A DNA stretch of 64,000 nt, from positions 13 to 64,012 of the forward strand of contig CALXML010000006.1 in NCBI GenBank assembly GCA_944389465.1, written 5' to 3'. Position numbers and translations under genes: made by a program. Source of the DNA: an uncultured Alphaproteobacteria bacterium (GTDB lineage: Bacteria > Pseudomonadota > Alphaproteobacteria > Rs-D84). This document shows positions 36,972-58,580 of the stretch, one piece after another (position 1 is the first letter of the stretch; every line of letters starts with the position of its first letter). The notes under the pieces are model-generated. The model saw only the letters and a list, made by a program, of their open reading frames with translations, was not told the origin of the DNA and ran no database searches.

Positions 36972-36973
36972 TA

Positions 36974-37771: not shown

Positions 37772-38426
37772 TGAACTTATTGCCAAATATTGCCCGAATG
37801 GTGTTAACCATAAAGAATTGTGGAAATTAACAACCTGGGATAAAAAATTCAACGGTGTTGATAAATCAATGCAACCAAAGGTTATAAAATATCCATATTT
37901 GTTAGCAGCAGATATGAATACATTGGAAACCGAACAAGGCAACGTCAGGTTATTGGCAACAGGTATAGGTGCAGAAAAATATACAACAGAAAAATTAGCG
38001 GGCAGTAACTTATGCGAGGGAGAAATTGTTGCAATCCCCTGGGGTGGAACACCGAATGTAAAATATTATAAAGGAAAGTTTGTCACAGCAGATAACAGAA
38101 TAGCAACCTCCAATGATACAACAATATTAAACAATAAGTTTTTATATTATTATCTTTGTGCAAATTTGGATTTGATAACTTCTTTTTATAGGGGCGCAGG
38201 GATACAACATCCACATATGAAATCCGTGCTAACAATGAAAATCCCTGTTCCGCCACTGGCTGTGCAGGAAGAGATTGTTAATATACTAGATTCTTTCACA
38301 TTATTGGAAGCGGAGCTGGAAGCGGAGCTGGTGGCCAGAAAAAAGCAATATGAACATTATCGTGATAAGTTATTGAATTTTGCTGATATTTCACAGGGGG
38401 GGGGTAAGGACGATGGCACTTTGTGA
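37758..38426 (+). CDS. hsdS: type I R-M specificity subunit, N-terminal half (TRD1 + central conserved region), truncated after a G9 tract
   Basis: MSRIDELIAKYCPNGV start, conserved helix PPLAVQEEIVNILDSF..LEAELEAELVARKKQYEHYRDKLLNF. The frame ends 22 nt after the homopolymer. Confidence 0.85.
   Translation: MSRIDELIAKYCPNGVNHKELWKLTTWDKKFNGVDKSMQPKVIKYPYLLAADMNTLETEQGNVRLLATGIGAEKYTTEKLAGSNLCEGEIVAIPWGGTPNVKYYKGKFVTADNRIATSNDTTILNNKFLYYYLCANLDLITSFYRGAGIQHPHMKSVLTMKIPVPPLAVQEEIVNILDSFTLLEAELEAELVARKKQYEHYRDKLLNFADISQGGGKDDGTL
38307..38330 (+). repeat. perfect 12-bp tandem duplication GAAGCGGAGCTG x2 (EAEL-EAEL) in the hsdS central helix
   Basis: 38307-18 and 38319-30 are identical. Confidence 0.9.
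38396..38404 (+). repeat. G9 homopolymer at the hsdS half-junction
   Basis: Nine consecutive G counted directly. It separates frame 0 (37758-38426) from frame +1 (38380-38949). Confidence 0.95.
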
Positions 38427-38949
38427 AATAGCAAAAATTACAATTGGAGAATTTGTTCATAAAAACAATCAAACATCAGATGGCTTGTATCCTGTTTATA
38501 ACGGTGGAACCAGCAACACAGGTTTTTATAATGAATATAATCACACAAGCAACAATATTATAATAAGTGCAAGGGGAGCAAATGCTGGGTTTGTAAATAG
38601 GGTTTTTGTAAATTATTGGGCAGGAAATAGTTGTTATAGTGTTGATGTGATAGACAGAGAAAACATCAATTGGACGTATATTTATTATGTATTAAAAAAC
38701 AATCAACAAAAACTTATTGGTGAACAACAAACAGGTAGCATCCCTGCTATTTCAAAAAAACAGGTGGAAAATTTTAGAGTTCCTATTCCATCACTTGCTG
38801 AACAGGAACGTATTGTTTCCATATTGGATAAATTTGATGCGTTGGTGAATGATATATCTGATGGTTTGCCTGCGGAAATAAATGCACGTCGCCAACAGTA
38901 TGAGTATTATAGGGATAAATTATTGAACTTTGAACCAATTGCTGCATAA
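38413..38949 (+). CDS. hsdS: type I R-M specificity subunit, C-terminal half (TRD2 + distal conserved region)
   Basis: ATG at 38413 follows TAAGGA. Ends with PSLAEQERIVSILDKFDALV...RRQQYEYYRDKLLNF, parallel to the end of the first half. Confidence 0.8.
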   Translation: MALCEIAKITIGEFVHKNNQTSDGLYPVYNGGTSNTGFYNEYNHTSNNIIISARGANAGFVNRVFVNYWAGNSCYSVDVIDRENINWTYIYYVLKNNQQKLIGEQQTGSIPAISKKQVENFRVPIPSLAEQERIVSILDKFDALVNDISDGLPAEINARRQQYEYYRDKLLNFEPIAA

Positions 38950-38960
38950 AGGAGAAAAAA

Positions 38961-39245
38961 ATGGTCAAAACAAACAAAAAATGGTCTATGAATAAAATAT
39001 TGGTAACAGCATTGTTATCATTGTGTGTTGTTTATACTGGTGTTGGTTTGATAAATCAAGCAATTAAACCAGCACACGCATTTGATAGTTGGGATTTAAA
39101 AAATGCCATAGAAGATGTCGTGTCAGATAAAATATCCGCATATGATTATGATTTTAAATCCGCCGTAAGACGTGTTGTTAATAATAATTGTTCAGTATCG
39201 TGTTATGAATCTTATGGAAGTGTTAGTTGCAGTATAGATTGCTAA
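38961..39245 (+). CDS. small exported/membrane protein (94 aa) inserted between hsdS and hsdR
   Basis: RBS AAGGAGA, N-terminal hydrophobic segment, C-terminal CSVSCYESYGSVSCSIDC. Confidence 0.5.
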   Translation: MVKTNKKWSMNKILVTALLSLCVVYTGVGLINQAIKPAHAFDSWDLKNAIEDVVSDKISAYDYDFKSAVRRVVNNNCSVSCYESYGSVSCSIDC

Positions 39246-39268
39246 ACTTTGAACCAATGGCTGCATAA
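39245..39268 (+). repeat. duplicated hsdS 3' end
   Basis: AACTTTGAACCAATGGCTGCATAA versus 38926-38949 AACTTTGAACCAATTGCTGCATAA (1 mismatch). Confidence 0.85.
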
Positions 39269-39276
39269 CAAAAGGA

Positions 39277-42200
39277 ATGATTATGGTAAATTATAGTGTT
39301 GTTGCAGAAAATAAAGAATCCACCGTTGTGGCACAATATAAATCCACAAATGGCCGTGAAACAACATACCAATCCGAAGCGGAATTGGAAAGGACCTTTA
39401 TCAAACAATTGGAAAAACAGGCATACGAATATCTTCCTATTCACAGCGAAGAAGATTTAATAAACAACCTGCGTCACCAATTGGAATTGCTAAATGACTA
39501 TAAATTTACTGATAACGAATGGGCAAACTTTTTTAAACAAAACATTGCCAACCAGGCCAATGGCATCAAAGAAAAGACCGCAATGTTGCAACGTGACGGG
39601 CATATTCAATTGCTAACACGTGATGATGGCACCACCAAAAACATTTATTTGCTGGATAAAAAAGACATTCACAATAACCGCCTGCAAGTTATCAACCAAT
39701 ATACAACCGATGCTGGGGTTCACGAAAACCGTTATGACGTAACCGTATTGGTTAATGGGTTGCCAATGGTGCATATTGAATTAAAACGTCGTGGGGTTGA
39801 TATCAAACAGGCATTCAACCAAATCAACCGTTATCAACAAGATAGTTTCTGGACAGGTTGCGGATTGTATCAGTATATCCAGATATTCGTTATATCCAAT
39901 GGCACATATACAAAATATTATAGCAACACAACACGTGACCTGCATATAAATGAAGCCAAGAATAATTCAATCACACCACGCAAGAAAACCAGTGACAGTT
40001 TTGAATTCACATCTTGGTGGGCCGATGCCACAAATATGCCAATCACTGACCTGATGGACTTTGCCAAGACATTTTTTGCCAAACACACCATTTTGAACAT
40101 TTTAACCAAGTATTGCGTGTTTAACACCGATGACCACTTGTTGGTTATGCGCCCATATCAAATCGTTGCCACGGAACGAATTTTGAACAAAATCAGAGTG
40201 TCTTCAAATTACAAGAAATATGGCACGATTGATGCTGGGGGGTATATCTGGCACACCACGGGTTCTGGTAAAACGTTGACCAGTTTTAAAACCGCACAAT
40301 TGGCCAGCGCAATGCAGGAAATCGACAAGGTTTTATTCGTTGTTGACCGTCGTGATTTGGATTATCAAACAATGCAGGAATATGACCGTTTTGAAAAAGG
40401 TGCCGCCAACAGTAACACCAGCACCGCTGTATTAAAACGTCAATTGGAAGATTCCAATGCCAGAATTATAATCACAACAATTCAAAAACTGTCCCTGTTC
40501 ATTGAAAAGAATCCAAAGCATCCTGTATTTGATAAACACATTGTTTTGATATTTGACGAATGCCATCGTTCCCATTTTGGTATTGCCCACGAACAAATTG
40601 TCAAAGCATTCAAAAAATATCACCTGTTTGGCTTCACTGGAACACCTATATTTGCACAAAATGCCAGTGCTGGTGGCAAAGCACATTTGAAAACCACAGA
40701 CCAAGCATTTGGGGAACGTCTGCACGTGTATAGCATTGTGGACGCAATTCGTGATAAAAATGTTTTGCCATTCAAGGTTGATTATGTTGGAACAGTGAAG
40801 TGCAAGAACGCAGAAAACATTGAAGATAAAAAGATAAGTGACATTGACCGTGAAAAGGTTTTAATGGCCCCAGAACGCATTTCTAACAACGTAGGATACA
40901 TATTGAACAATTTTAATACAAAGACCAAGCGGAACGATAAATCGTTCTTGTTCAGTATTGTAACAAACGTTGAAAAGGTGGCCAGCGCAAAAGACCGTAA
41001 CAAGATTGAAAAAGTTAAACAAGCAATTCGTATGTCTGGGTTCAATTCTATATTTGCGGTGCAATCCATTCCAATGGCACGTCTGTATTATAACGAATTC
41101 AAAAAGCAGATGGCCGAACACCCTGAAAAAGGGTTAAAGATTGCCACCATATTCAGTTTTGCCGCCAATGGTGACGAATATTCTGATGACGGTATGTTTG
41201 ATGAAAATCCAGAAAACACAGGTGCATTGGATGCAACGTCACGTGAATTCTTGGAATCTGCTATTGACGATTATAACAAAATGTTTGGCACCAGTTATGA
41301 CACGTCCAGCGACAAATTCCAGAATTATTATAAAGACGTTTCACTTCGTATGAAAAACCGTGAAATTGACCTGCTGATTGTGGTTAATATGTTCCTGACA
41401 GGATTTGATGCCACGACATTAAATACGTTGTGGGTTGATAAAAACTTGCGTATGCACGGTTTGTTGCAGGCATTTTCACGCACCAACCGTATATTGAATT
41501 CTATCAAGACACACGGGAACATCATTTGCTTCCGCAATCTTGAAAAAGCAACCAATGAAAGTTTGGCTCTGTTCGGTGATAAAGATGCTGCAGGTGTCGT
41601 GTTATTAAAGACATTTGACGAATATTACAATGGTTATGAAGACAAAGGAAAACAAGTCCCAGGGTATAAAGAATTGGTTGATGAACTGTTGGAAAAATTC
41701 CCAATCGGACAAATGATTCTTGGCGAAACCGCAGAAAAAGAATTCGTGCGTTTGTATAGTGCAATTATCCGTTTAAGCAATGTTCTGGCTTCGTTTGATG
41801 AATTTGCGGATAAACAGATATTAACTGAACGTGATATCCAAGATTATGCCAGTATGTATATTGAAATGCACAGCAAATATATCAGAACCAAGGAAGCAGA
41901 AAAAGAAAATATCAACGACGACTTGGTATTTGAAATGGAACTTATCAAGCAGATAGAAGTGAATATTGACTATATTCTGGCCTTGGTTAAACAGTACCAC
42001 GACAAAAATTGCCAAGACAAAGAAATCAGGGTTTCAATTGAACGTGCAATAGATGCCAGTGTTGATTTGCGTAACAAAAAAGACCTGATTATGCAGTTTA
42101 TAGATTCTTTAACACCAGATTCTGTTGTGGATAGAGATTGGTTGGTGTTCGTGAATGAAGCCAAAATATCTGAATTGAACAAGATTATTGACCAAGAAAA

Positions 42201-42408
42201 TCTGAACAAAGAAGAAACATACACGTTCATCAGGAATTCGTTCCGCAATGGTTCAGTGCAGACAAATGGCCAAGACATTGAAAAGGTTTTGCCACCAATA
42301 TCACGTTTTGATAAATCTGCAAATCGCACCCAGCGCAAACGCAATATCATAACACGTCTGCTGGAATTCTTTGACAGATTCTTTGGCATATCTAATGGTG
42401 AATTTTAA
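39277..42408 (+). CDS. hsdR: type I restriction endonuclease subunit R (type IC-like length)
   Basis: 1043 aa. N-terminal nuclease region (VLVNGLPMVHIELKR), helicase motif I TGSGKT, motif II FDECHRS, motif VI region QAFSRTNR. Confidence 0.9.
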   Translation: MIMVNYSVVAENKESTVVAQYKSTNGRETTYQSEAELERTFIKQLEKQAYEYLPIHSEEDLINNLRHQLELLNDYKFTDNEWANFFKQNIANQANGIKEKTAMLQRDGHIQLLTRDDGTTKNIYLLDKKDIHNNRLQVINQYTTDAGVHENRYDVTVLVNGLPMVHIELKRRGVDIKQAFNQINRYQQDSFWTGCGLYQYIQIFVISNGTYTKYYSNTTRDLHINEAKNNSITPRKKTSDSFEFTSWWADATNMPITDLMDFAKTFFAKHTILNILTKYCVFNTDDHLLVMRPYQIVATERILNKIRVSSNYKKYGTIDAGGYIWHTTGSGKTLTSFKTAQLASAMQEIDKVLFVVDRRDLDYQTMQEYDRFEKGAANSNTSTAVLKRQLEDSNARIIITTIQKLSLFIEKNPKHPVFDKHIVLIFDECHRSHFGIAHEQIVKAFKKYHLFGFTGTPIFAQNASAGGKAHLKTTDQAFGERLHVYSIVDAIRDKNVLPFKVDYVGTVKCKNAENIEDKKISDIDREKVLMAPERISNNVGYILNNFNTKTKRNDKSFLFSIVTNVEKVASAKDRNKIEKVKQAIRMSGFNSIFAVQSIPMARLYYNEFKKQMAEHPEKGLKIATIFSFAANGDEYSDDGMFDENPENTGALDATSREFLESAIDDYNKMFGTSYDTSSDKFQNYYKDVSLRMKNREIDLLIVVNMFLTGFDATTLNTLWVDKNLRMHGLLQAFSRTNRILNSIKTHGNIICFRNLEKATNESLALFGDKDAAGVVLLKTFDEYYNGYEDKGKQVPGYKELVDELLEKFPIGQMILGETAEKEFVRLYSAIIRLSNVLASFDEFADKQILTERDIQDYASMYIEMHSKYIRTKEAEKENINDDLVFEMELIKQIEVNIDYILALVKQYHDKNCQDKEIRVSIERAIDASVDLRNKKDLIMQFIDSLTPDSVVDRDWLVFVNEAKISELNKIIDQENLNKEETYTFIRNSFRNGSVQTNGQDIEKVLPPISRFDKSANRTQRKRNIITRLLEFFDRFFGISNGEF

Positions 42409-42428
42409 TCAAAGGGGGAAATTGACAG

Positions 42429-42671
42429 ATGCCGTATGATTGTTCACTTAATTCTGCACACGCAGTGAACGAAAAATATAAACGCGAAGAAGCCGCGAAA
42501 CAGGTGCAATTGGTCAAAGAACAGAAAAAAGATGCCTATGATGCAGAAATGAAATCATTGGCTGAACAGAATTTGCAGGCCGCGATTAAAAACCAGCACA
42601 TCGCAAATAAAACTTTCTGGGTTGCTGTGGTTTCTGGTATAATTGGGTTGATATCACTGATATTCAAATAA
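42429..42671 (+). CDS. small tail-anchored membrane protein (80 aa)
   Basis: Charged coiled N-terminal part and a C-terminal TM helix (FWVAVVSGIIGLISLIF). Confidence 0.4.
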   Translation: MPYDCSLNSAHAVNEKYKREEAAKQVQLVKEQKKDAYDAEMKSLAEQNLQAAIKNQHIANKTFWVAVVSGIIGLISLIFK

Positions 42672-42684
42672 AGGGTTAATAGAG

Positions 42685-43125
42685 TTGGGTGAAATAATAA
42701 AATTTTTACAACAAAATGGTGATTGGATTGCTGGTTTGGGAATGGTGTTTTTTGCAGGCGTCCAAGTTTGGTTGATGTTTTCACAAAATCGTCAGCAGTT
42801 GTTATTAAAACGTCTAGAATTGCTCCAACAATTTGATGAAATAGCAATCAAGTTTGACGGTTCAATAGAAACAGCAATAGAAATCCAAGAATGGTTAAGC
42901 AAACACCAAAGTGTTTTTGCTGTATTATTAAAAAAGAAAGATGTTAAAACGGTGGAAAATTTGTTTAATTTTTTGATGGGCATTCGTAAATCCCCGAAAA
43001 CCAACGAAACACAAGTGCTTATACAACGTGTTAAAGATTTCAATATTATTGCCAATAAAGTCACGCTGTGTTTAGGTAAAGCCCGTTATGGAATGACAAA
43101 AGAAAACTTGATTAAAATCAAATAA
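42685..43125 (+). CDS. small N-terminally anchored membrane protein (146 aa)
   Basis: TTG start, TM helix WIAGLGMVFFAGVQVWLMF. Last gene before attR. Confidence 0.4.
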   Translation: MGEIIKFLQQNGDWIAGLGMVFFAGVQVWLMFSQNRQQLLLKRLELLQQFDEIAIKFDGSIETAIEIQEWLSKHQSVFAVLLKKKDVKTVENLFNFLMGIRKSPKTNETQVLIQRVKDFNIIANKVTLCLGKARYGMTKENLIKIK

Positions 43126-43460
43126 AAAGCAAACACATTATAACCCAGTGGGTATCACCCCACCCATAGATGTCACGTTAAATTCTGGTGCCACATAAAA
43201 AGAATGCTTTTTTTATTGTATCGCTGTTTGTAATAAACTATAATAATGCGTGAAACCAGACGGCAATATCCCAAAAAACATATTGTCGTTGAAACAGTGA
43301 AACCAAAGGACTAACAAAAGAACAAACAATTTTCTTGGGATACCAGTGGGATTTATCAAATCACAATTTATAAAAATTGCTGAAACTTGATAAAACATAA
43401 CCTGTTGATTTATGTGTTATATTGTGTGTTGGTATCTTATGTTTTTTTATCTGGCCAATG

Positions 43461-43505
43461 CTGTTAATCCGTATGTCACTGGTTCGAGTCCAGTTGCCCG
43501 AGCCA
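43461..43505 (+). repeat. attR: 45-bp copy of the tRNA-Asn 3' half
   Basis: Identical to 31743-31787. Confidence 0.9.
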
Positions 43506-43513
43506 AGGATTTT

Positions 43514-43539
43514 AAGGTCTTCGGTATGAAGACCTTTTT
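43514..43539 (+). terminator. ancestral tRNA-Asn terminator
   Basis: AAGGTCTTC-GGTAT-GAAGACCTT followed by TTT. Confidence 0.65.
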
Positions 43540-43582
43540 ATATTTTATGCATTGGTTAATCGCAAAAATTTAGGCAATTATT

Positions 43583-43595
43583 CAGCCATAGGTTG
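43583..43595. repeat. solitary array-type box
   Basis: ATTCAGCCATAGGTTGAATTT (core CAGCC-ATA-GGTTG), same family as the 45.4-51.2 kb array. Confidence 0.6.
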
Positions 43596-43691
43596 AATTT
43601 GTGTTTTTTATACAAATTTTGCCCCTAATAGAAAAACTTTCTAAATTGAACAATATTTCTATTAGACTGCTTGTGATGTCGGTTTAAGAAA

Positions 43692-43886
43692 TGTTATTCT
43701 GGAGTTGTGGAATATTACCAAGTGTCCAAATCCACATCAGATGAAAATGTTTTAAGACGGGAACAGGCTTCATTAGATGCCATAAAAGGCAGCTATCCTA
43801 AATACCTGCTGACTATGGATTTGGGTGGTGGCAACCATAATGGCATAGAACACAAGAATATATTGGATTGGCTGGTGGCAAAATAG
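43692..43886 (+). pseudogene. C-terminal remnant of an AAA ATPase (DUF4143-like)
   Basis: Frame reads ..GVVEYYQVSKSTSDENVLRREQASLDAIKGSYPKYLLTMDLGGGNHNGIEHKNILDWLVAK*. An upstream stop at 43674 leaves no N-terminal ATPase part. Family assignment is from memory. Confidence 0.4.
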
Positions 43887-43979
43887 CCACTGCGACCTTT
43901 ACCCATTCAAATAATTATATATGTCAGCAGAATTTCTTTTCTTGTATTTCGGTCAAAAAGAGTCTATAATTAAAAAAAT

Positions 43980-44011
43980 CCCGCGGGTCACCACTCCCCA
44001 CGGGGTTTTTT
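43980..44011. terminator. possible bidirectional terminator
   Basis: CCCGCGGG-N9-CCCACGGG (1 mismatch) flanked by an A-run and a T-run. Confidence 0.35.
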
Positions 44012-44132
44012 ATTGCGTGTTTTGCCCAATCTTTATGCAAAATTGACTGTCTATACCAAGGGCTGCAAAACGTGCCGCCAGAAGAGGGCGGCAGTATGAT
44101 AATTACAATTCAAAAACAGTTATTTTGGCTGT

Positions 44133-45308
44133 TTATCTATTAAAAAAGTCTTTTACTTTATCCAGTGCGTTTTGCACAAAAGACTTCTTTTGTGCCAGAC
44201 CATGGACTTTTTTTGTTGCTGTTGTCAAATTCTGTACTTGTTTGGTATAGAAATAATCATAAAAGGCTTCAATGGGCACGCCAATTCCACCATTATTATC
44301 CGCAGAAATAAATACACCGGTTATACCCAAATGTTTCAGTTGTTCCTGTATACCCTGTGTTGTTTCCGCGCCGGTTCGGGCCGCCAGCTGGCTGGGTACG
44401 GGGGAAAACCAAACCACTTTATCTTCTAGGGTTGAATTAGCCATCAAATCTGTTTTGCGAATTTTCCCCAATGTGTCAAGTTCGTGAATCCGTAATGCGC
44501 CACTTGTAATTTCCAGAAAATCTTTTGGTGCGGCCCGCCATGCATCAATTATTGCCGGTAAATATATTATATGATTTCTGTAGTATTGATATGGACTGCG
44601 TTCATTATATGGCATTCCTTCTGCAAATTCACTGTTAGCAGATTGTAATAATGCGTCTATGTCCGCGGCGGGCAATTCCATATTTAATGCGCGCTGTTTA
44701 AATATTGCCGCAGGATACTTTTTCTCTAACATTTGGCAAACCAAATCCAATTCTGGATATGGATTTTTATTCATGTCCGGCATTTTATTCAACCAACCGG
44801 CGTCAGAAATTCCCTGTAACGGATACCATTTGCCAGACGCGATTCCGTATTCTGCTTCCTTGCCAGATAATCCGGACGATACATAAAAAGGCAAACGATG
44901 ACCATTTATAATTACAACAGCAATCGCGCGGCCCCCACGACCAACAATGCCAGACACTTTGCCGGACTTGGTCGGGATTAATTCTAAATAGACATTGTTA
45001 CCATGAACTTTGCCTATGGGCTGGGTTTCCGTCAAATCTGTAACACGCCCCCACATAATATTTTCTATGCGATTTTTATCTAATTGATTTTGCAAAACAA
45101 TAACCGACACGTTACCGTCCGGATATTCCAGACATGTATAGATAACATTTGGTCGTTGATTTAATTCGCCGGCAATTCGGTGGTATTCACTATCGTTGGC
45201 GCATTTGTGCTCGTAATATTTTACACCAAACTTATTTTTATCCGCAGGAACAAAATTAAAATCAGCACCTGATATACGATTTAATTTTTTTAATTGTGTT
45301 TGTTGCAT
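44133..45308 (-). CDS. hypothetical protein (391 aa) abutting the repeat array
   Basis: Long clean ORF with no signal peptide and no recognisable domain. Confidence 0.6.
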   Translation of the reverse strand: MQQTQLKKLNRISGADFNFVPADKNKFGVKYYEHKCANDSEYHRIAGELNQRPNVIYTCLEYPDGNVSVIVLQNQLDKNRIENIMWGRVTDLTETQPIGKVHGNNVYLELIPTKSGKVSGIVGRGGRAIAVVIINGHRLPFYVSSGLSGKEAEYGIASGKWYPLQGISDAGWLNKMPDMNKNPYPELDLVCQMLEKKYPAAIFKQRALNMELPAADIDALLQSANSEFAEGMPYNERSPYQYYRNHIIYLPAIIDAWRAAPKDFLEITSGALRIHELDTLGKIRKTDLMANSTLEDKVVWFSPVPSQLAARTGAETTQGIQEQLKHLGITGVFISADNNGGIGVPIEAFYDYFYTKQVQNLTTATKKVHGLAQKKSFVQNALDKVKDFFNR

Positions 45309-45358
45309 ATCGTATCCTTTGCGTCAATTATACTATATTTTCGCAAAGATATCTATAC

Positions 45359-45520
45359 AATTGGCGCGGGACGACCGCACCGAACAGTACCTATTATTTA
45401 TGGCGCACGCCACAACACACGGCACAACGCGCGGCAATAAAACATACGCGGTGATTGGATGAACCGCCGGCCCCAATAATGATTGGCGGCGCGTTGACGC
45501 GCCTGTGACGCCGCAAGACA
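45359..45520. repeat. GC-rich terminal module, left
   Basis: AATTGGCGCGGGACGACC...GGCGCGTTGACGCGCC... is the reverse complement (with small indels) of 51044-51194. Confidence 0.85.
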
Positions 45521-48225
45521 CAACCAGTGGTTGAATACACGGTTGATTTTCTGCCGGATATAACAGCCTATGACTTTGCATTTTTTCAAATCACGATTAC
45601 CGCAACACAACCACAGGTTGAATATTTTTAAAAATTCAACCAAATATGCAGATTACATCCGAACGGTTAATGTTGAATATGTTGTATTTTTGCCATAATG
45701 CTTGCGATATTAATACCAAATACAACCGATGGTTGAATTTATTGCGACGCTCAACCAAAATAATTGGACGATTATTGAATTAAAAGAACGATTTCGTTAA
45801 TGCCCCAAAATGGCAGGACAAAACACAACCTGTGGTTGAATATACTGCAACATTCAACCAATAATGACGCTGGCGAACCCCGAGCCACGAGAAGCGTTTT
45901 CAGCAACGCCCAAGATTAACAAGACTAAACACAACCTACGGTTGATTTTGTTGTAATATTCAATTAAGTATAGATAGCAAGTAATTGTATAGGCAGTTGT
46001 TTTAATATTTTGCTACAGTACCAAGATTAAATACAACTTGTGGTTGTGTTTATTGCAGTATTCAATCAAAAAATAATGTGCCAATTATTGGATTAAGAGA
46101 ACAAATTCATCAATGTCTGAAACAGCGTGGAAAAATACAACTTACGGTTGAATTTGTTGTAACATTCAACTAATGGCAGTGCGTTAGACTATTAGATTAT
46201 GCCCCCCAAGTTCAGTAACGTTTGGATTATAACCGTTAAACACAACCTGTAGTTGAATAATTTATAAAATTCAACCAAATACGCAGCTCTATGCCAAAAT
46301 GCCTAACAGAAATTACATTATATTTTGCTACAACCAGTACAATATTAGCATCAAATACAACTTCTGGTTGAATTTATCATAGCGTTCTGCTAACGACGGG
46401 CTCTGTCATTAAATTACAGATAGCGTTTTGCAATAATGTCCAGATTATCAAGAATCAATACAATCAGAGGTTGAATATTTTTAACAATTCAACTAAATAT
46501 ACAGGTTTATGTCCAAATAATTAGTGAAAAATATGTTATATTTTGTTGTCATAAGCGCAATTTTAACGCTAAATACAGCCTACGGTTGATTATATTATAA
46601 TATTCAATTAATCATAGGCGACAAGTGATTAGATTACAAACAGTAATTTTACCAACGTCCTATATTATCAAGCTCAAATACAACCTACGGTTGAAATCGT
46701 TGATATATTCAATTAAATACACTCCCAGCCAATTGCGCGGATTACCAGCATCAATTTCAACCTACGGTTGTATTTGATACATTCCGCACACCGACAGATA
46801 AAATGCAAACGGACACGATTTCAACTATAAATTCAACCTGTGGTTGTATTGCTCTTTGCATTTACGGACTTCTAATGAAATGCTAGACAAATGTATTTCG
46901 CAGGGCAATTAATAGACAATCCCCGACATTATGCATAATAATTCAACCTACGATTGTATTTAACCTTGTGTTTCTAGTATAATTCCAACCAGATAAACGT
47001 AATTAACTACTAACTTACCGAATGTAATTTTTTACTCATGGATACAACCTGTGGATGTATTACATTTGCACAAGTGCAGACGAGCGGATAATACGAGAAT
47101 TTAAACAAAGTTTCAACCCTTGGTTGTATTGGGCTTTGCGTTTGTAATGTTTTACTTAATATAACAAGATAAGTTGCAAACAATCGTAATTTTGATAAAA
47201 TACGATAATTTTTTACAACAATACAACCTATGGTTGAATTTGTTTTGATGTTTCCAGTATTTGCATCTATAAGGTTGGCAAACGTCTATAATCAGCGGCA
47301 AAATTGTTGACAACTCTCATTAGCGACATTTGCCGGTTTTGTCGCCATAAATTCAACCATAGGTTGTATTGTGGTTCGGGTTTTCCGCAATTTTTCTGTG
47401 CCGCCCCCAAAAGCATCAACCAAGCGACTACACCGCACAATGTAACTATTTTAAAAGTTCAATCCACATTAGGCACAATGACCAAATACAACTATGAGTT
47501 GAATATTACTTCTGATTTCTGCCGATTGTGCGAGCGTACAAGTTACACCGTCCTGTGTGATGGAATAATGTTTTTTCTGTTCTCCAATTGTCTGTTACGA
47601 AATTTGAACACTTTCGGAAGCCCGACCAAGTAAATTGCTATCTAAATGACTGATATGCATCGCCATGTGTGTAATATCAATACTAAATACAACTTGTGAT
47701 TGAATTTGCTAACGTATTCAACCAGTTATAACACGGTCAGCACATCCGGACTTTTAATGACGATTTGATAAAACATCTAGCTTAACCCACATGAATACAA
47801 TCTATAGTTGTAAGAAATACAAATTTCTATTCTTTGTTTTGTCGCGGGGACACATTCTGTCACAATCCGATTTTTTCTAAATTATCGGTGCTCAATCACT
47901 GTATTTTTATTCTTGCATATATGATGGCGTACACGGGACAATTTTTAGTCTTTTTGACTAGAAATATTTACAATATTCAACTACTGGTTGATTGCTAGTG
48001 CTGAAATCCGGTACTATTTTAGAAAACAATTAATGCGTTAAGAGCCAATACTTTTACAGAATGTAAATATACTACCTTGGATTGAAAAGTTTAATAAATT
48101 CTATCACTGGTTGAAGCGCATAGCTAAATATCAGCGTTTTTAACAAATTAATAAAATACAAAATTTTAAAAATGCTGCGTACAATGATGGGTTGCAACTC
48201 TGAAAAAACGCTAAATACTAACATA

Positions 48226-48248
48226 AAATTCAACCAATGGTTGAATTT
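48226..48248. repeat. perfectly palindromic 23-bp box near the array centre
   Basis: AAATTCAACC-AAT-GGTTGAATTT. Confidence 0.85.
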
Positions 48249-51043
48249 TATTATTCTGTCTAGTTTTTTATTGGGGCTTTGATAACCAAAACATCAAAAG
48301 GTTGCTTGCTAGTAATCAGCAGGACAAAAAACGTAAAATATTAAACGTAATTTCAACTGTGAGTTGAATTTTATTGGCTTGTCTTGTCTTTTTTTGATGA
48401 ATATAAAAAAGTATTCAACCATAGGTTGATTTTACGCCCAATATTGTAGTTGTTATCATAGATTTAGAACCAAACACTCGGATGGCGCGCACTTATGTAA
48501 ATTGGGGTGAAGTGTTTAACAAATACAACCACAGGTTGAATTTTGGTGTAAAATACTGCGGACTACCGTTAATTATCGTGTCAATCAAAGAATACATGTG
48601 TCCGACGAACATCCAGCAAAGCGTAATAAATTCAATACGAAATTCAACCAGAGGTTGTATTAGATTCTTTTCTATTGTACATAGGTGACCTTATAAGATG
48701 TATGCAAGTGGAATTTTATACTAAAACCAACCCTAGGTTGAATGAGCTGGCGTTAATGCAGGATATTGGTGGGGTGCTATCCGTAATCCAACAATCAATG
48801 GCATTATTATAAGTTGAATATATTTGTAAATTCAACCGTCGGTTGTATTTATGTCTTATTATCTCATATAAATAATGTTTTATAATGATTGTCCAACGGC
48901 TGTTGCAGATAATGATACAGCATATGTAGGCTGAACAAATTTTATTGTCATTACAGGTTGAATTAATGTCTGCAAAATCGCCTGTACCGCCATTTACAAT
49001 TATGTTTTGTTTGCTATTAGTCTTCCTTTGGTGGTGTTTTGGGGTGCACGGCTAAAAAATGTAACATCCACAACCACAGGTTGAAATTTCTGCTGTAAAT
49101 CTGCACTGTTTCCGAAGTTATCCCCAATAAGTCAATAATTGGGTATATGGGTTTTGATTAATTGAATAATACGATAGTTTCAATCATGGGTTGAATCTGT
49201 GTGCTTAATTTTGCGTTTTACAGCGGAGTATTGAATTATGAACAATATTTTTCAGCTATGCTGAATTTGTGGTGACGATATATGTTGGTGGTTGAATAAA
49301 TGACAAAAAAACAACCTTTGGTTGAATATTTATCCGTATTTTATAGACGTGTCGGATAAATGCTTTAAAAATACGAATTATAGATTAATCATTGGTGCTG
49401 TATATTTGTTGTCAAAATATCGGTAAAAATACCGAATGCTGATTATATACCAGAAGAAATACTAGGTAATAACAGACAAAAACACCATACAAAATTTAAC
49501 CATAGGTTGTACCCATGAGTAATAAATTACATTCGGTAAGTTATTAATAGTTTTAATTATAGTTATATGGTTTGTGTTATGTCAAAACACGGGGGTGAAT
49601 ACAACCATAGATTGAATCGTTGCGCAAAATCCCGCAAATTTACTTATTAAAATTTCTAATAATTCAGACAACTCATTTGCAACCAATGTAATTAAAGTAA
49701 AATACAACCACAAGTTGAATTATGACGCTATTTCTATTATAAGTTGATCATTTGTGTTAAGGTGTCTGAAGTGGAGAAACTTACATCAAAATCAACCCTA
49801 GATTGAATTTAGTGTTGGTATTTGTTTGTATAGAGCATTTGATTGTAGGAAACGGTTAGATTTTTCCAGATTAAACTTTTGTCATGTATAACTACTTGAA
49901 CTCTCAATCACTCTTGTTATTAATATTAAAGTTGCCAAAACACTGAACGCAATACAACCACAGGTTGAATTTATATTTAAAATCGTGTCTGTTTGCACTT
50001 TATCTGTCGGTGTGCGGAATGTATTAAATGCAACCGTAGGTTGAAATTAATGCTGGTAATCTGCGCGGTTGGCAGGAAATGCATTTGGTTGAACATATCA
50101 ATAAATTCAGCCGTAGGTTGTATTTGGGCTTGGTGATATAGGGTATTAGTAAAATTACTGTTTATAATCTAATCACTTGCCATCTATGATTAATTGAATA
50201 TTATAATAAATTCAACCACAAGTTGTATTTAAACCTGATAAGAAAGGAGTTTCAGAAATTGTAGATTATAATCCATCTATTGATAGTGTTGTCATTGGTT
50301 GAATGTTCTGTCAAAATCAACCACAGGTTGTATTTTTATGCCGTTGTTTCAGGCATTGATGAACTTGTTCTCTTAATTCAATAATTGGCACATCGTTTTT
50401 AATTGAATATTGCAACAAAATCAACCATGGGTTGTATTTTTGTGCCGTTGTTTCAGGTATTGATGAACCTGTTCTCTTAAGCCAATAATTATCCGCATCG
50501 TTTTTTTGATTGAACCTCGTGATAAATGCAACTACAGATTGTGTTTAATACTGGTAATCTAGGATGTTAACAAAAATTGTTAAACCAACTGTTGATAGTG
50601 TCGTCATTGGTTGAATGTTCTGTCAAAATCAACCACAGGTTGCATTTTGTCTTGATAATTTAAGGTATTATAAAAATCACTGTTTGCAATCTATTAATTT
50701 AATTGAATATTATGCAAAATTCAACCACAGGTTGTGTTTTATCTTGCTGTTTTGGGGCATCAATGAAATCGTTCTTTTAATTCAATAATCGGCCAATTAT
50801 TTTTTAATTAAATATCGTAATAAATTCAACTATCGGTTGTATTTAATATAAATATCGCAAGTGTTATGGCAGAAACGCAACATATTCAACATTAACCGTT
50901 CGGATGCAATCAGCATATTTAGTTGAATTTTTAAAAACATTCAACCTGTGGTTGTGTTGTGGTAATCGTTATTTGAAAAAAAACGCAAAGTCATAGGTTA
51001 TTACATCCGGCGGAAAATCAACCGTATATTCAATCTGTGATTG

Positions 51044-51194
51044 TGTCTTGCGGCGTTACAGGCGCGTCAACGCGCCGACAATCATTATTACGGGCCAGCG
51101 GTTCAGCCAATCGCCACGTATGTTTTATTGCCGCGTGTTGTGGCGTGCGTCATAAATAATAGATACTGCTCGGGCCGGTCGTCCCGCGCCAATT
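51044..51194. repeat. GC-rich terminal module, right
   Basis: Reverse complement of 45359-45520, with an approx 11-nt deletion and scattered substitutions. Confidence 0.85.
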
Positions 51195-51304
51195 TGGTGG
51201 CGGGATTATAAAATGTACCATATATTTAAATGCCAATTCGTCATACGACTTCTTTCACTTGTCTTGTTATAAATATCGTGTCGGCGGGATTTTAGCCGTT
51301 TGTT

Positions 51305-51317
51305 CAACCGGTGGTTG
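51305..51317. repeat. solitary perfect box outside the inverted repeat
   Basis: TGTTCAACC-GGT-GGTTGGAT. Confidence 0.6.
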
Positions 51318-51600
51318 GATTTGCCTTGGGTATATTCATTTGCGGGCGGGTGGGGCGGTCACGTTGTGGCCTGATATTTCGCGGTTATTGGAAATCGCAT
51401 AGTCATTATTGCATAATCATTATATTAAATATCGTCTATTCCCCATCGTTTGCGTTCGTTGTGTTGCCAGTGGCGGGGCGTGCCGTATGTGTCGGGACGT
51501 CACATCCATAAATTTGCCAAAACGCCCAAATGCCAGTGGCCACGTTGTCCATATATCATAATAATTCATCGCCTTGATTTTTCTGTGTTAATTTTTCATC

Positions 51601-51629
51601 TTGCTTTGCGGTACGATGCAGGATAACAT
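51601..51629 (+). promoter_or_regulatory. sigma70-like promoter of the Cys-rich gene
   Basis: TTGCTT - 17 nt - TAACAT, in the same position relative to the leader as at 5079-5107. Confidence 0.45.
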
Positions 51630-51866
51630 AATTTATGTTGATGGGTGTTCCGTCAATGGGGTGTGAGAACCCGTGCATACGCGTCGGAATATTGGGACGG
51701 TGCGGTTGTGCCGACCGTGTGGTATTACGACGAAAAATAAACTCCTGATATTTGGTCAGGAGGGTCGTGAATATAAAATAAGCGACACAATTCGTATGAT
51801 TGTTCTCAACCTCCTGACCACCAAGTTTTTGGTGGTTTTTCGTTAAGAAAAAACAGGAGTTTGAAA
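51630..51866 (+). promoter_or_regulatory. conserved structured 5' leader (copy 2) with intrinsic terminator
   Basis: Hairpin 51638-51656, hairpin 51742-51762, terminator ACCACC-N8-GGTGGTTTTT at 51817-51840. Confidence 0.55.
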
Positions 51867-52448
51867 ATGAAAAAAACATTATATATAGCACCGCTTATTG
51901 CGGGCTTGTGCAACAGTGCTGTTGCTTGGACGGCTGGTCAACAGTGTGCCGCCGATTATGATATGTCCACATATTATCAATGCGATTGCCCAATAGAAGA
52001 CAGATTGGCCAGTGGCTGGATTGTTGGGCCGTGTGATTCTTATGAACAAATCTGGTGTTATGATACGAATGGCGTTTGTGCCGGTGACGGTGGCGAGGGT
52101 GCATGTGGGGTATGCCACTGCACAGATTCTGTTGGTGATTGGGAAAAAATGACAGACCCGTTTATCGGCGAATTTATGCAACGCGTTATCACGACGTACA
52201 GTCATTCAGATAATTATTATATATGCAAGGCATCCACCCAGCGTGAAAAAGCATGTTTGGCTGGGTATTATAAATCTGGTACTTCTGGATTAAACTGTCG
52301 CTTGTGTCCGTCATTTAATGGTGTGGCCGGCGCATCAGATATTGGTGCCACCAGCATAACAGATTGTTATATAGCATCCGGCACAATATTGTCAGATACC
52401 ACCGGAACGTACACATATACACGTGATTGTTATTACAGTAACCAGTAA
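51867..52448 (+). CDS. secreted Cys-rich protein (193 aa)
   Basis: ATG at 51867 lies 7 nt after AGGAG. Signal peptide MKKTLYIAPLIAGLCNSAVA and 19 Cys. GYYKSGTSGLNCRLCP and the C-terminal TGTYTYTRDC motifs are shared with 4127-4408. Confidence 0.65.
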   Translation: MKKTLYIAPLIAGLCNSAVAWTAGQQCAADYDMSTYYQCDCPIEDRLASGWIVGPCDSYEQIWCYDTNGVCAGDGGEGACGVCHCTDSVGDWEKMTDPFIGEFMQRVITTYSHSDNYYICKASTQREKACLAGYYKSGTSGLNCRLCPSFNGVAGASDIGATSITDCYIASGTILSDTTGTYTYTRDCYYSNQ

Positions 52449-52460
52449 TTACAAATAAAT

Positions 52461-52487
52461 ACCCCGCCGTTCGGTGGGGTATATTTA
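52461..52487. terminator. terminator between convergent genes
   Basis: ACCCCGCC-GTTC-GGTGGGGT plus a T-rich tail. Confidence 0.6.
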
Positions 52488-52502
52488 TCAATATTGGTTT
52501 TG

Positions 52503-53144
52503 TTACAGTCCAAATTTGTATGCCGCGCCAATGTATAATTCTGTGGCGTCAACCTCTACTGAAATATGGTTGCCGGCGTCGTCACTCATTTCAATATCGC
52601 CATAGTTTTGATATTTTAATCCTATGTTTAAATCTATGCGTGTGTTTAATGCAAAGTTTACACCAACCATTGCGCCCCACGACATATCAGCGGTTGAATC
52701 AGACATATGCATTCCGCCACCAACATCGCCCCAAATGCCTGAAACACCAATGCCCAATCCGGCATATGGTTCAACCGCGCCACCAAATTGCTGGTACACG
52801 TACACATTCAGCATATTTGACCATATGTTAAAATCATAATCATTGCCGTATTTTTCTTCGCCGCCATATGTGTATGCTGTTTCAAATTCTATTTTTATAT
52901 GGTCTGTTAATCTGTTTCCGATATTCAGGCCAAAACCAAAACTGTCATCGCGCAATTTAGTATCGTTGCCATCTTTAAATTCAACACCAAATGCCAAGTG
53001 TTCATTTTGGTGCAATCTGATACCGACATAGTTATCACGACGTGGTGCATTGCCATAATCATAACCATATCCATAATCATCGGCCACAGCGGGCAGGGCA
53101 GACAATCCCAAAATGCTGCATAATATAATAGACAGTTTTTTCAT
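52503..53144 (-). CDS. outer-membrane beta-barrel protein (small OMP/porin family)
   Basis: Signal peptide, alternating aromatic/Gly beta-strand pattern, C-terminal ..AAYKFGL. Confidence 0.7.
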   Translation of the reverse strand: MKKLSIILCSILGLSALPAVADDYGYGYDYGNAPRRDNYVGIRLHQNEHLAFGVEFKDGNDTKLRDDSFGFGLNIGNRLTDHIKIEFETAYTYGGEEKYGNDYDFNIWSNMLNVYVYQQFGGAVEPYAGLGIGVSGIWGDVGGGMHMSDSTADMSWGAMVGVNFALNTRIDLNIGLKYQNYGDIEMSDDAGNHISVEVDATELYIGAAYKFGL

Positions 53145-53230
53145 CTCTTATCCTCTGTTTTGTGTGTTTAGTAATTATAGTTTTAATTTATGGAAAAAGG
53201 CAAGTCGTTTATGATATAATTCCATAACGG

Positions 53231-55024
53231 TTGGAGATTACTGCATTGTTTCGCACAGAATCAGATGTTCACAGTCGTGATAAAAAAAATCAACAGCGCG
53301 CCCCGTCGCGTTGGGTGCGTTTATTGGTTTGGGGCATAGATTTATTTATGTTGTGCTTGGTTGGTGTTGCGATATATGTGGTTGTCATATTTTTGCAAAT
53401 GCCATCACTGGATGCGATTTTGCATGAAACGCGCCCCGCAGCAATAGTGTTTCTGGACAAGGATGGCAATGAGTTGCGTTCATCAAATCGCATAATGGGT
53501 GTGCCGGTATCTGTGGAAACTTTGCCGCCCCACGTATGGCAGGCCATTGTTGCAATAGAAGACAAACGTTTCTTTGAACATGGGCCGATTGAAATTCGTG
53601 CCATTGCGCGTGCGATGATTTCTAATTTAATGCATGGGCGGTTGGCGGCCGGTGGTTCAACAATAACACAGCAAACTGCAAAAAATATATTCTTGTCCCG
53701 TGAAAAAAAGATTTCGCGCAAGGTTCAGGAATTAATTTTATCATATTGGCTGGAAAACAGATTTACTAAAAATCAGGTTTTGGATTTATATATGAACCGT
53801 GTGTCTTTGGTTGGCGGAATGCGTGGAATTGACGCGGCCGCGCGTGTTATGTTTCAAACATCTGCAAATAATTTAACAATTGCACAGGCTGCACAAATCG
53901 CCGCAATGTTAAAAGCCCCAACAACATACAGTCCATTGGTAAACCCCGATAAAAATATCGCACGTGCCCGCACTGTATTACAGGAAATGGTGCGTCAGGG
54001 ATATATTTCATTAAATCAGGCGCGTATTGCGGCACGTCAATTACAACCTGCAACCCCCGCACCAAATACAAATATATACCGTTATTGGACAGATTTTGTT
54101 CTGGACGAAGTTGAATCCACAATAGGTACATTGGAAACAGATGTTTATGTATACACCACAATGGATATGGAGTTACAGGAACATATTGCCGACATATTAC
54201 CCACGCGGGTTGGTGAATATCAGGGGGCGGTTGTTGCCATGAATACCGATGGTGCGGTGCGTGCAATGGTTGGTGGCACTAATTATCAGGAAAGTCAATT
54301 TAATCGCGCATTGGCACTGCGTCAACCCGGCAGTTCGTTTAAGCCTGTTGTTTATCTGGTTGCGTTGGAAAATGGTATGACACCCGACAGTTATGTTAAT
54401 GATTCCCCATTTTCAATTGGCGATTATTCGCCGCAAAATTATAATAAACGTTATTATGGTGATATAACTTTGGCAACAGCGTTTGCAAAGTCTGTTAATT
54501 CAGTGCCATTAAAACTGACACAGGAATTTGGTATTGACAGTGTGCTGAATATGGCGGGCCGTTTGGGTGTGGGCAATAAATTGCGTCGTGAATATTCAAC
54601 AGTGTTGGGGGCGTCTGAAATGTCGCTGTTGGATTTAACGACCATTTATGCGGTTATTTGGAATGATGGGTATTCTGTGCGTCCCTATTCAATTACAAAA
54701 ATAACAGACCCACAGGGAAATATAATTTATCAACGTAATCCATCAGAACCACTGCAAATTTTAATGCCACAAACTGTGGAATATATGACGGATTTATTGG
54801 CAGACGTTGTCGCTGTTGGTGGTACGGGACATCGCGCAATGGCATCCGGTGTGCTGGGTGGCAAAACCGGTACCAGTAATGACAACCGTGATGCGTGGTT
54901 TGTTGGTGCATGGCGTGATTTGATAATAGGTGTCTGGATGGGCTACGATGATTTTACATCAATGTCATCAAAAATAACCGGTGGCACAATCCCAGCAACC
55001 ATATTCCATGAAATAGTGAAATAA
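53231..55024 (+). CDS. mrcA: penicillin-binding protein 1A family (bifunctional transglycosylase/transpeptidase)
   Basis: EDKRFFEH and GGSTITQQ transglycosylase motifs; SSFK, SVN and KTGT transpeptidase motifs. The TTG start is uncertain. Confidence 0.85.
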   Translation: MEITALFRTESDVHSRDKKNQQRAPSRWVRLLVWGIDLFMLCLVGVAIYVVVIFLQMPSLDAILHETRPAAIVFLDKDGNELRSSNRIMGVPVSVETLPPHVWQAIVAIEDKRFFEHGPIEIRAIARAMISNLMHGRLAAGGSTITQQTAKNIFLSREKKISRKVQELILSYWLENRFTKNQVLDLYMNRVSLVGGMRGIDAAARVMFQTSANNLTIAQAAQIAAMLKAPTTYSPLVNPDKNIARARTVLQEMVRQGYISLNQARIAARQLQPATPAPNTNIYRYWTDFVLDEVESTIGTLETDVYVYTTMDMELQEHIADILPTRVGEYQGAVVAMNTDGAVRAMVGGTNYQESQFNRALALRQPGSSFKPVVYLVALENGMTPDSYVNDSPFSIGDYSPQNYNKRYYGDITLATAFAKSVNSVPLKLTQEFGIDSVLNMAGRLGVGNKLRREYSTVLGASEMSLLDLTTIYAVIWNDGYSVRPYSITKITDPQGNIIYQRNPSEPLQILMPQTVEYMTDLLADVVAVGGTGHRAMASGVLGGKTGTSNDNRDAWFVGAWRDLIIGVWMGYDDFTSMSSKITGGTIPATIFHEIVK

Positions 55025-55088
55025 AATTCATCAGTACAGAAATAAAATCTGTTTTTATTGTGTTGGATTTTGTGATATAATATATGGT

Positions 55089-56072
55089 ATGAGAAGTAGG
55101 AATCTGCTGTTTTTACCAATTGTTTTATGTGCACTGGTTACGGGCACGGCCCGCGCAAATTGGGAATATTCCGGATATTATGTGGGGGATGGTGCGTATA
55201 CTGATGACGGCAGTCGCTTTATCGTATCTGTGCGTGGCGGTGCATCAATTGGTATGGGGGCAATTAAAAACGAAATTGGTGAATTAACCCCGTTGTATTA
55301 TATGAGTCCCGATGGCAGCACCATTATGTCTGAATTGGGATATTATCAGTGTCAGGACCGTGGTGAATGCATGGACTTTATTCCCGCCGGTTATGTGAAT
55401 TTGGGCGATTTGCCCGCGACCAAGGATTTTGAATCATTTGGTTTTGCGGCCGGTGCCAGTGTTGGTTGGACAATTCCAAATACGCCCCAATGGCGTGTTG
55501 AATTGGGCTGGGACCATATAATGAAAAGTGAATATAACGCATCCCCATTCATAGAGGGCGACGCCCCATTATTCAGTGGCGATGCCGCTGGCGCAATTGC
55601 AACAATTTCCAGTGGTGCGGTTCAATCATCTGTTGAAACGGATATTATCAGCGTAATGGCGTTTTACGATTTTTACGATGGTATACAAAAACCCGCACGT
55701 CAGGTTATTCCATACATCGGATTTGGTGTTGGATATGCGGATATAAAAACAACATTGAATTTGTCTGACCCGTACGGGGATTTGTCTGGCATATATGAAT
55801 TATTACCATACGGGGTCAAGGAACAGTCTGATGATGTAATTCAATTTTATCGTTCTGAATTAAGTTCTGCCAATATTGCGGGATTGTTATCGTTGGGCCT
55901 GTCGTACGGCATAACAGAAAAAATGTTTTTTGATATTGGTGCACGTGTCGCATATATTCCACGTATTCGTTGGGCCTTAAGTAACGAAGACGCCAGTCAG
56001 CACCGCGATTGGTTCAGTGCAGAAAACGCAATATATGCAAATATTATGTTAAGCCTGCGATTTGAATTTTAA
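55089..56072 (+). CDS. outer-membrane beta-barrel protein
   Basis: Signal peptide ..GTARA, beta-strand periodicity, C-terminal LSLRFEF. Confidence 0.6.
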   Translation: MRSRNLLFLPIVLCALVTGTARANWEYSGYYVGDGAYTDDGSRFIVSVRGGASIGMGAIKNEIGELTPLYYMSPDGSTIMSELGYYQCQDRGECMDFIPAGYVNLGDLPATKDFESFGFAAGASVGWTIPNTPQWRVELGWDHIMKSEYNASPFIEGDAPLFSGDAAGAIATISSGAVQSSVETDIISVMAFYDFYDGIQKPARQVIPYIGFGVGYADIKTTLNLSDPYGDLSGIYELLPYGVKEQSDDVIQFYRSELSSANIAGLLSLGLSYGITEKMFFDIGARVAYIPRIRWALSNEDASQHRDWFSAENAIYANIMLSLRFEF

Positions 56073-56076
56073 TAAG

Positions 56077-56101
56077 AATCCGCCCAAATGGCGGATTTTT
56101 T
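56077..56101. terminator. bidirectional terminator
   Basis: AATCCGCC-CAAAT-GGCGGATT followed by TTTT. Confidence 0.75.
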
Positions 56102-58579: not shown

Positions 58580-58580
58580 A

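Follow-up and report, generated by a model that had tools for sequence, protein, structure and literature searches.

A 64-kb stretch of DNA from an uncultured alphaproteobacterium (positions 13 to 64,012 of contig CALXML010000006.1, GenBank assembly GCA_944389465.1; hereafter the window, about 7% of the genome) contains, at 45359–51194, a 5.8-kb non-coding array of a 19-bp palindromic box. We interpret this array, with moderate confidence, as a locus-specific minisatellite of the box that resembles the NIME/dRS3 or the REP/BIME repeats of other bacteria. In support of this interpretation, the box persists across related Candidatus Enterousia species in arrays that are laid out differently. The array lies between a gene for a 391-residue protein on the minus strand and a gene for a 195-residue protein on the plus strand, and the interval around it (45324–51776) is the only place in the window where more than 1.2 kb passes without an open reading frame (ORF) of at least 120 codons.

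The box, WTWCAACC-N3-GGTTGWAW, is a near-perfect palindrome with a 3-nt centre, and its asymmetry is limited to the outer flank. Perfect cores (CAACC-N3-GGTTG) occur 27 times in the window, against 0.10 expected, all of them within 45521–51317, and the remaining 58 kb contains none. With up to two mismatches allowed, 54 boxes lie inside the repeat and two solitary copies lie outside it. One of the latter (GTTCAACCGGTGGTTGGAT, 51302–51320), with a perfect core, is located 111 bp beyond the right end of the repeat; the other (ATTCAGCCATAGGTTGAAT, one mismatch, 43580–43598) is located 1.8 kb from the array and about 550 bp downstream of the 391-residue gene, and is kept in the second strain described below.

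From left to right, the array comprises a terminal module (45359–45517), a left arm (45518–46860, plus orientation), a centre (46861–49948), a right arm (49949–51046, minus orientation) and a second terminal module (51047–51194). The left arm carries 14 boxes spaced 102–115 bp apart and the right arm 13, both in units of about 105 bp that are homologous over their full length in a unit alignment and thus display true tandem homology; Tandem Repeats Finder reports a period of 104 at 50312–50505 in the right arm. The consensus unit of the left arm is AAAYACAACC-N3-GGTTGAATTTATTG-AAYATTCAAYY..., in which a half-box is found downstream of the box, and in the right arm the half-box is upstream of the box on the plus strand. 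The centre, which is AT-rich (32–34% GC), contains 27 boxes, more of which are degenerate, irregularly spaced (29–238 bp) and set in mutually unrelated spacers, and it has no ORF longer than 109 residues.

The terminal modules are about 150–160 bp long, GC-rich and box-free. The left one (~159 bp) contains a hairpin (GGCGCGTTGACGCGCC) and a 12-nt tandem repeat, and is an inverted copy of the right one, with 88–91% complementarity. In a four-way alignment that includes both arms of the second strain, all copies of the module finish at ...CCCGCGCCAATT, and they differ from each other by indels that are not multiples of three, which argues against the modules being coding. The array as a whole displays no protein-level similarity to related genomes, and no Rfam family matches 42000–53000 at E ≤ 1. 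Sites for GANTC are depleted in 45359–51194 (0.69 per kb, compared to 1.77 per kb in the whole window).

A reading made from the letters alone (the sequence-only reading) had described the array as an imperfect inverted repeat of giant size, its arms opposed in polarity, and a repeat search of the window bears this out, with similarity that extends well past the boxes. Overall, 45359–45857 pairs with 50703–51194 and 46570–46852 with 49949–50231 at 85–91% identity. The individual inverted pairs, from the outermost inwards, are 45359–45424/51129–51194 (66 nt, 91%), 45475–45586/50978–51089 (112 nt, 89%), 45581–45760/50802–50981 (180 nt, 88%), 45757–45857/50703–50803 (101 nt, 86%) and 46570–46852/49949–50231 (283 nt, 87%). 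A global alignment of 45359–48276 with the reverse complement of 48277–51194 scored 541, compared to 20 for the direct orientation and 0–2 for shuffled sequences, and the example sequence that had been quoted as evidence is present in the window. The near identity reported for 46740–46852 and 49951–50063 is genuine in the true register (86.6%), but the coordinates were 2 nt off and give 26% as written.

Other elements of that description had to be revised. Identity was said to be roughly 85–90% over the outer 1.5 kb and to decay inwards; instead, there are two colinear blocks followed by an abrupt drop. In the global alignment, identity per 100 columns is 81–90% at 45359–45851 and at 46625–46824 and 22–73% between these blocks, where the arms differ in the number of units (713 bp in the left arm, 472 bp in the right). 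Inside 46860/49950 it is about 50%, which is the background, with the exception of a 54-nt inner inverted pair (47008–47061 and 49493–49546, 87%). The box positions of the centre, also thought to be mirrored, give 6 matches about the best axis compared to 6.06 ± 0.77 in gap-shuffled controls. The asymmetry of the box flank does flip between the arms, from ATA/ACA..AAT on the left to ATT/AAT..TAT/TGT on the right, and the half-box ATTCAAY, 14 nt after the core, flips along with it. The multi-kb cruciform proposed for the array is unlikely, as its well-matched arms are only 85–91% identical, contain indels, and are at least 3.1 kb apart.

The same locus is occupied by the repeat unit in a second strain (L337, contig CASEUW010000012.1 of GCA_949291275.1), whose flanking genes are 98.5% identical to those of the window and whose array spans 6.2 kb with about 58 boxes. 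Its arms are again inverted repeats, 83–97% identical in blocks. Window positions 46928–49432 align to L337 in the opposite orientation relative to both flanks, and the 2.4-kb centre of L337 is therefore inverted. The inversion breakpoints are at the inner repeat pair, with the high-scoring segment pairs of the alignment ending at 46928/47006 and 49429/49493 and the copy at 47008–47061 located at one breakpoint. Inversion of the centre appears to use the arms as its substrates. The arrangement seen in the window is confirmed from both of its sides by five independent assemblies that are 99.8–100% identical to it.

Over the outer 500 bp, the arms of L337 are 92.1% identical to each other and 90.4% and 86.5% identical to their positional orthologues in the window. 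Being closer to each other than to these orthologues, they point to some exchange between arms in one lineage. The arms of the window are 85.1% identical to each other.

The two strains differ by 1.0% in adjacent non-coding DNA and by 2.4% at third codon positions. Within the array, the difference is 3% over the 195 bp at the outer end of the right arm and 9–16% further inside. By this measure, the interior of the array changes 5–10 times faster than its flanks. The box stems differ at 8.6% of positions versus 13.9% for the spacers (odds ratio 0.58, p = 6e-4), and compensatory changes in the stems are not enriched (6/24 versus 15% expected).

Homologues of the 391-residue gene are found beside clusters of the box in related species. 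The protein has 40 relatives; none belongs to a named family, and all come from metagenomes of gut alphaproteobacteria. About 13 boxes span 1.4 kb just downstream of the gene in L204/L205 (80% amino acid identity), and at least 34 boxes span 3.8 kb and reach the contig end in L211–L213 (77%). L347 (67%) has one box at its contig end, L206–L208 (63%) have four scattered intergenic boxes, and L348, L214, L216 and L209, in which the protein is at most 60% identical, have none. The array of L211 consists of direct higher-order repeats of 243–380 bp with boxes that alternate in orientation, and it lacks a giant inverted repeat. BLAST of the relatives’ arrays against the window gave no similarity besides the 391-residue gene itself. 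As the spacers of the box-bearing relatives cannot be aligned with those of the window, the palindrome is the conserved element, unlike spacers, unit length and layout. At the far end of the L211 array (15178–15264), the opposite strand encodes a 29-residue stretch weakly similar to residues 29–61 of the 391-residue family (48–52%, E about 1e-4), which is possibly a gene fragment left by rearrangement.

Wider searches for the box gave little. A scan of viral contigs for ACAACCNNNGGTTGAAT gave single chance matches only, and a BLAST search for distant similarity to the left arm among plasmids and phages gave no match. In a metagenome scan for two boxes 80–110 nt apart, the matches listed were unrelated coding repeats and chance occurrences, which is uninformative about distribution.

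The host is an uncultured gut alphaproteobacterium of Candidatus Enterousia with a genome smaller than 1 Mb. The best relatives of its penicillin-binding protein (PBP) gene (53231–55024) are 81–93% identical at the amino acid level and belong to metagenome-assembled genomes labelled uncultured Alphaproteobacteria or Candidatus Enterousia, and a closed genome of 958,618 bp is among them. Enterousia is placed in the order Rs-D84, and its genomes are mostly below 1 Mb with a coding density of about 90% (PMC12306168).

Gene order around the array varies within the genus. In other Enterousia species, a ligA-fabI-tRNA block directly adjoins the outer-membrane protein gene. Relative to L004–L013, the ligA-fabI-tRNA-Asn block of the window (28251–31787) is inverted, and in those relatives the ligA end meets the outer-membrane protein gene (28277 beside 52500); in the closed genome L009, window position 14164 adjoins 52510 instead. 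By synteny, the locus is a recurrent breakpoint and a rearrangement hot spot. The 44 related stretches that were fetched via the PBP gene contain no box and no comparable non-coding gap. Considering (i) that the blocks abut elsewhere and (ii) that none of these 44 stretches has a box, the array lies at a junction created by rearrangement and is restricted to a small clade. Contigs that stop 4–5 kb upstream of the PBP gene first suggested that arrays break assemblies there; they actually end at the tRNA/ligA block.

An integrated island of 11.7 kb (31712–43505) is inserted nearby at the tRNA-Asn gene (31712–31787). It is delimited by a 45-bp direct repeat (31743–31787 and 43461–43505) and carries a tyrosine integrase gene (32121–33194) as well as a type I restriction-modification system, in which the specificity subunit is divided between two short ORFs of one domain each (37725–38426 and 38380–38949). 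The array is outside the island, because the island stops 1.85 kb short of it. The island and its restriction-modification genes are absent from L337, yet L337 has the array, and the boxes were accordingly rejected as sites of this system.

The following course of events would account for a minisatellite of this kind. The box would be the recognition site of a sequence-specific protein, read either as a duplex palindrome by a dimer or as a hairpin in single-stranded DNA. Units would be gained and lost through unequal recombination or slippage, and the arms would stem from one inverted duplication that included the terminal module. The centre would then be flipped, and the arms partly homogenised, through homologous recombination between the arms and between the inner repeats.

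Several observations weigh against this interpretation. The box is not dispersed, unlike REP and dRS3 repeats: the confinement of perfect cores noted above, together with their absence from the 44 stretches at the PBP locus, leaves one locus in 64 kb, save the two solitary copies. The inverted arrangement of the centre is known from a single assembly, that of L337. Individual boxes are only moderately constrained between strains, and, because compensatory changes are not enriched, neither hairpin nor duplex recognition is demonstrated. No cognate protein for the box was identified either. The published Ssn-related motif HGTCWYN(0-2)YYVSBRHN(0-5)WNVSBRGN(0-2)RNCYNB (PMC11893778) has no match on either strand of the window, no frame of the window contains the GIY...YIG motif of the small GIY-YIG (cd10448) nucleases, and general family scans of the neighbouring proteins gave no RAYT (IS200/IS605-like Y1 transposase) domain.

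The 391-residue gene (44133–45308, minus strand), the start codon of which is 50 bp from the array, probably does not fill this role. Its product has no Pfam or NCBIfam family. The predicted structure is confident (pLDDT 89, pTM 0.86) but has no significant fold match in the PDB (best E = 0.03, TM about 0.1) and displays no detectable DNA-binding or nuclease fold, which also counts against the minisatellite interpretation, as does the internal deletion of the gene in L337 and the lack of flanking boxes beside more distant homologues. The deletion is in frame and removes 921 bp (window 44313–45233; about 18107–18233 in L337), with the array intact. The protein was therefore rejected as the partner that binds the box, on the grounds of its unmatched fold, lack of a family, distant homologues without palindromes, and the L337 deletion. 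As the gene is dispensable for persistence of the array in L337, it is probably not required for the array, and its link to the boxes is probably positional.

The minisatellite interpretation has to be weighed against a functional cluster of binding sites, i.e. a platform acting in cis on which one DNA-binding protein is loaded in many copies and that would be centromere-like, condensin-loading, nucleoid-anchoring, or a titration sink such as sopC, datA and iteron control arrays. About 54 palindromic sites fit a dimeric DNA-binding protein, the motif is retained across species while the spacers are lost, and the stems are better conserved than the spacers. Furthermore, a 6-kb non-coding block has been kept in a genome of less than 1 Mb with a coding density of about 90% (PMC12306168). 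However, no parAB, SMC-loader or regulator gene adjoins any of the arrays: the window contains no parAB genes, and ParA and ParB families are absent from the flanking genes here and beside the L204 and L211 arrays. The spacings of the boxes show no phasing with the DNA helix (vector strength at most 0.25), the size, layout and gene side of the array vary by species, the closest species compared at the PBP locus have no box, and the interior of the array turns over rapidly. We thus regard such a platform as unlikely. A palindrome at 60381–60396 (TGTTGCACGTGCAACA), two mismatches from the parS consensus and inside an ORF without a family (60066–60839), may be a chance occurrence.

A bolder form of this idea, to which we assign the same low likelihood, is that the array serves Rs-D84 alphaproteobacteria as a dedicated cis-element on the chromosome, a bipolar site of several kb that would load a box-specific protein or act with it as a barrier. 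If true, the inverted arms and the flippable centre would be functional, and the partner would be the novel-fold 391-residue protein or another clade-specific protein. The element could serve in chromosome organisation, segregation, a barrier to forks or transcription, or the control of incoming DNA; the last is relevant to a host lineage that encodes ComM and is possibly competent.

At the other extreme, the array could be a neutral satellite, that is, a selfish or drift-driven tandem repeat in a small-population lineage with a reduced genome, in which the box has no partner and is merely the slowest-decaying or most gene-converted part. The hypervariability of the array between strains, the different unit numbers of its arms, an architecture that differs in each species, the absence of an array from most Enterousia species, and the modest constraint on individual boxes would all be expected of such a repeat. 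Against it, the same 19-bp palindrome persists where the neighbouring protein is only 63–80% identical and the spacers are unalignable. Nor is it easy to obtain the central boxes, which are set in unrelated spacers, from decay of a tandem duplication alone, and a satellite without any partner appears rather doubtful to us.

A relic of a foldback-type non-autonomous mobile element, with the arms and terminal modules as transposon ends, is improbable. The two arms end sharply and with identical sequence (AATTGGCGCGGG...) in both strains, homology to the L204 locus stops precisely where the left terminus lies (at 45356, immediately upstream of the −35 element of the neighbouring gene’s promoter), and the site is a rearrangement hot spot with the tRNA-Asn island nearby. 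A target-site duplication is absent, however, the flanks TATAC and TGGTG being different, and there is neither a transposase nor an ORF inside. No second copy of the repeat unit was found in the window, in plasmid and phage databases, or in viral contigs, and the box arrays of related species lack terminal inverted repeats. A CRISPR array was also rejected, considering the period of about 105 bp, the homology of spacers between units and arms, the inverted halves, and the lack of cas genes nearby.

Still less probable is that the divergent genes on either side are separated by a series of transcription terminators, insulators or small RNA genes. The boxes do score as terminator-like hairpins on both strands (44 versus 5.3 expected), and the centre of the array contains a perfect σ70 consensus on the minus strand (49585–49556; TTGACA, 18 nt, TATAAT; 12/12) that is directed toward the side of the 391-residue gene. 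The hairpins are nevertheless weak (−4.5 to −8.9 kcal/mol), their T tracts are poor, Rfam gives no family match, the region has no overall excess of promoter-like sites (39 versus 34.4), and more than 50 serial terminators would serve no obvious use.

The replication terminus and the origin are not supported by the sequence features of the window. GC skew is +0.060 at 1–28250 and +0.064 at 51195–64000, and the cumulative skew climbs across the entire window, so that the switch looked for at the array is missing and both sides have the same sign and size. No dif-like site was found in the window, and the array has no DnaA-box cluster (two one-mismatch matches in 6 kb), no CtrA sites and no parS. 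Among the neighbours that were scanned, which represent part of the ORFs of the window (39277–45308, 50–766 and 51556–63987), none belongs to a Tus or RTP-type Pfam family. The resemblance to a fork trap seen by the sequence-only reading, in which opposed asymmetric sites admit forks and block their exit, is hardly tenable: although the sites are very many and the arms are opposed in flank base and half-box, the 13-nt core is palindromic, the centre has no polarity and is inverted between strains, the skew does not switch, dif and DnaA/parS clusters are absent, the L211 boxes alternate in orientation without a bipolar layout, and most species of the genus lack the box.

On the right, the array is followed by the 195-residue cysteine-rich gene (51861–52448, plus strand), which has a hydrophobic N-terminus and is transcribed away from the array; a look-up of its product with the TTG start returned no record. 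Beyond it are, in order, an outer-membrane β-barrel gene, the PBP gene and comM. The non-coding DNA upstream of the 195-residue gene (51589–51860) is conserved at the nucleotide level beside homologues of this gene in L014, L017 and L042. It holds two terminator-like hairpins (51816–51837 on the plus strand and 51762–51742 on the minus strand) and has no Rfam match; it could be an unrecognised leader or small RNA. Elsewhere in the window, an ORF of 1689 residues (22240–27309) fuses glycosyltransferase domains (GT4, RgpF, GT8) and is very large for a genome of less than 1 Mb.

Genomes smaller than 1 Mb usually lose non-coding DNA, but a 6-kb block made of one palindrome (about 0.6% of the genome) has nonetheless been retained here. 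The array would represent a NIME/BIME-like repeat system outside the groups known for such arrays. It suggests that a repeat array of this type can adopt a giant inverted form and that this form, in natural populations, drives inversion, partial homogenisation of arms, and sequence change at 5–10 times the rate of the flanks. As the dRS3/NTS repeats of Neisseria were recently found to be targets of the Ssn single-strand nucleases, the 19-bp motif is a lead to another repeat-protein pair. In practical terms, the array breaks short-read assemblies and offers a hypervariable strain marker for these gut bacteria.

The REP, BIME and REPIN elements of Enterobacteria and Pseudomonas are short imperfect palindromes in non-coding DNA that are clustered, often in alternating orientation. 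REPs, presumably maintained by a dedicated protein, are dispersed throughout the genome and linked to RAYT transposases, and their clusters comprise at most about a dozen copies. Both the ~105-bp tandem unit and the kb-scale inverted arms of the present array are foreign to REP and BIME. The sopC locus of the F plasmid is made of a 43-bp unit repeated 12 times in tandem, and SopB binds a 16-bp palindrome in each unit. The likeness to our array lies in tandem units with one palindromic protein-binding site each, predicted in our case, of the form xxxACC-N2/3-GGTxxx. In contrast to sopC, the array has no adjacent partition operon, is tenfold larger, has inverted arms and variable central spacing, is chromosomal, and varies between strains.

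The Ter sites of the Tus-Ter and RTP-Ter systems are asymmetric and few, and are scattered about the skew switch and dif across hundreds of kb. Two groups of sites with opposed polarity around a centre are common to these systems and the array, which differs by its symmetric core, invertible centre, and lack of a skew switch and a dif site. The foldback (FB) transposons of eukaryotes have long terminal inverted repeats made of tandem sub-repeats, a distinct outermost sequence and a non-repetitive middle. Inverted arms of tandem sub-repeats, distinct outer modules and a non-repetitive middle are also found here, but in a bacterial host, as a single copy, and without a target-site duplication or a transposase. 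Similar to phase-variation switches and shufflons, a segment bounded by inverted repeats is present in both orientations among strains. There is, however, no adjacent gene for a site-specific recombinase, and the invertible part contains neither a gene nor a demonstrable promoter; the bounding repeats, being long and diverged, suit homologous rather than site-specific recombination.

NIMEs, the Neisseria intergenic mosaic elements, consist of 20-bp palindromes (dRS3/NTS) between RS spacers of about 50–150 bp, in long arrays that vary across strains (PMC1797815); REP-type repeats are mentioned in PMC11893778. The array shares with NIMEs a 19–20-bp palindrome with outer arms ATTC...GAAT, and a loop of 3 nt is likewise present in the longer NTS form (ATTCCCGCG-N3-CGCGGGAAT). 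A spacer length of about 50–150 bp, long intergenic arrays, and a repeat number and length that vary by strain are likewise common to both, a resemblance of architecture only, as are the location of arrays near surface-protein genes and palindromes that are GC-richer than their spacers (PMC1797815, PMC11893778). The differences are the sequence of the box, the alphaproteobacterial host, the absence of an Ssn-related motif match and of a GIY-YIG gene from the window, the giant inverted arms, which are not a NIME trait, and the concentration of about 55 boxes at one locus compared to hundreds that are dispersed in NIMEs. Among such repeat systems, the array is distinguished by how large it is for so small a genome, by the giant inverted form, by inversion at the strain level, and by a conserved motif.

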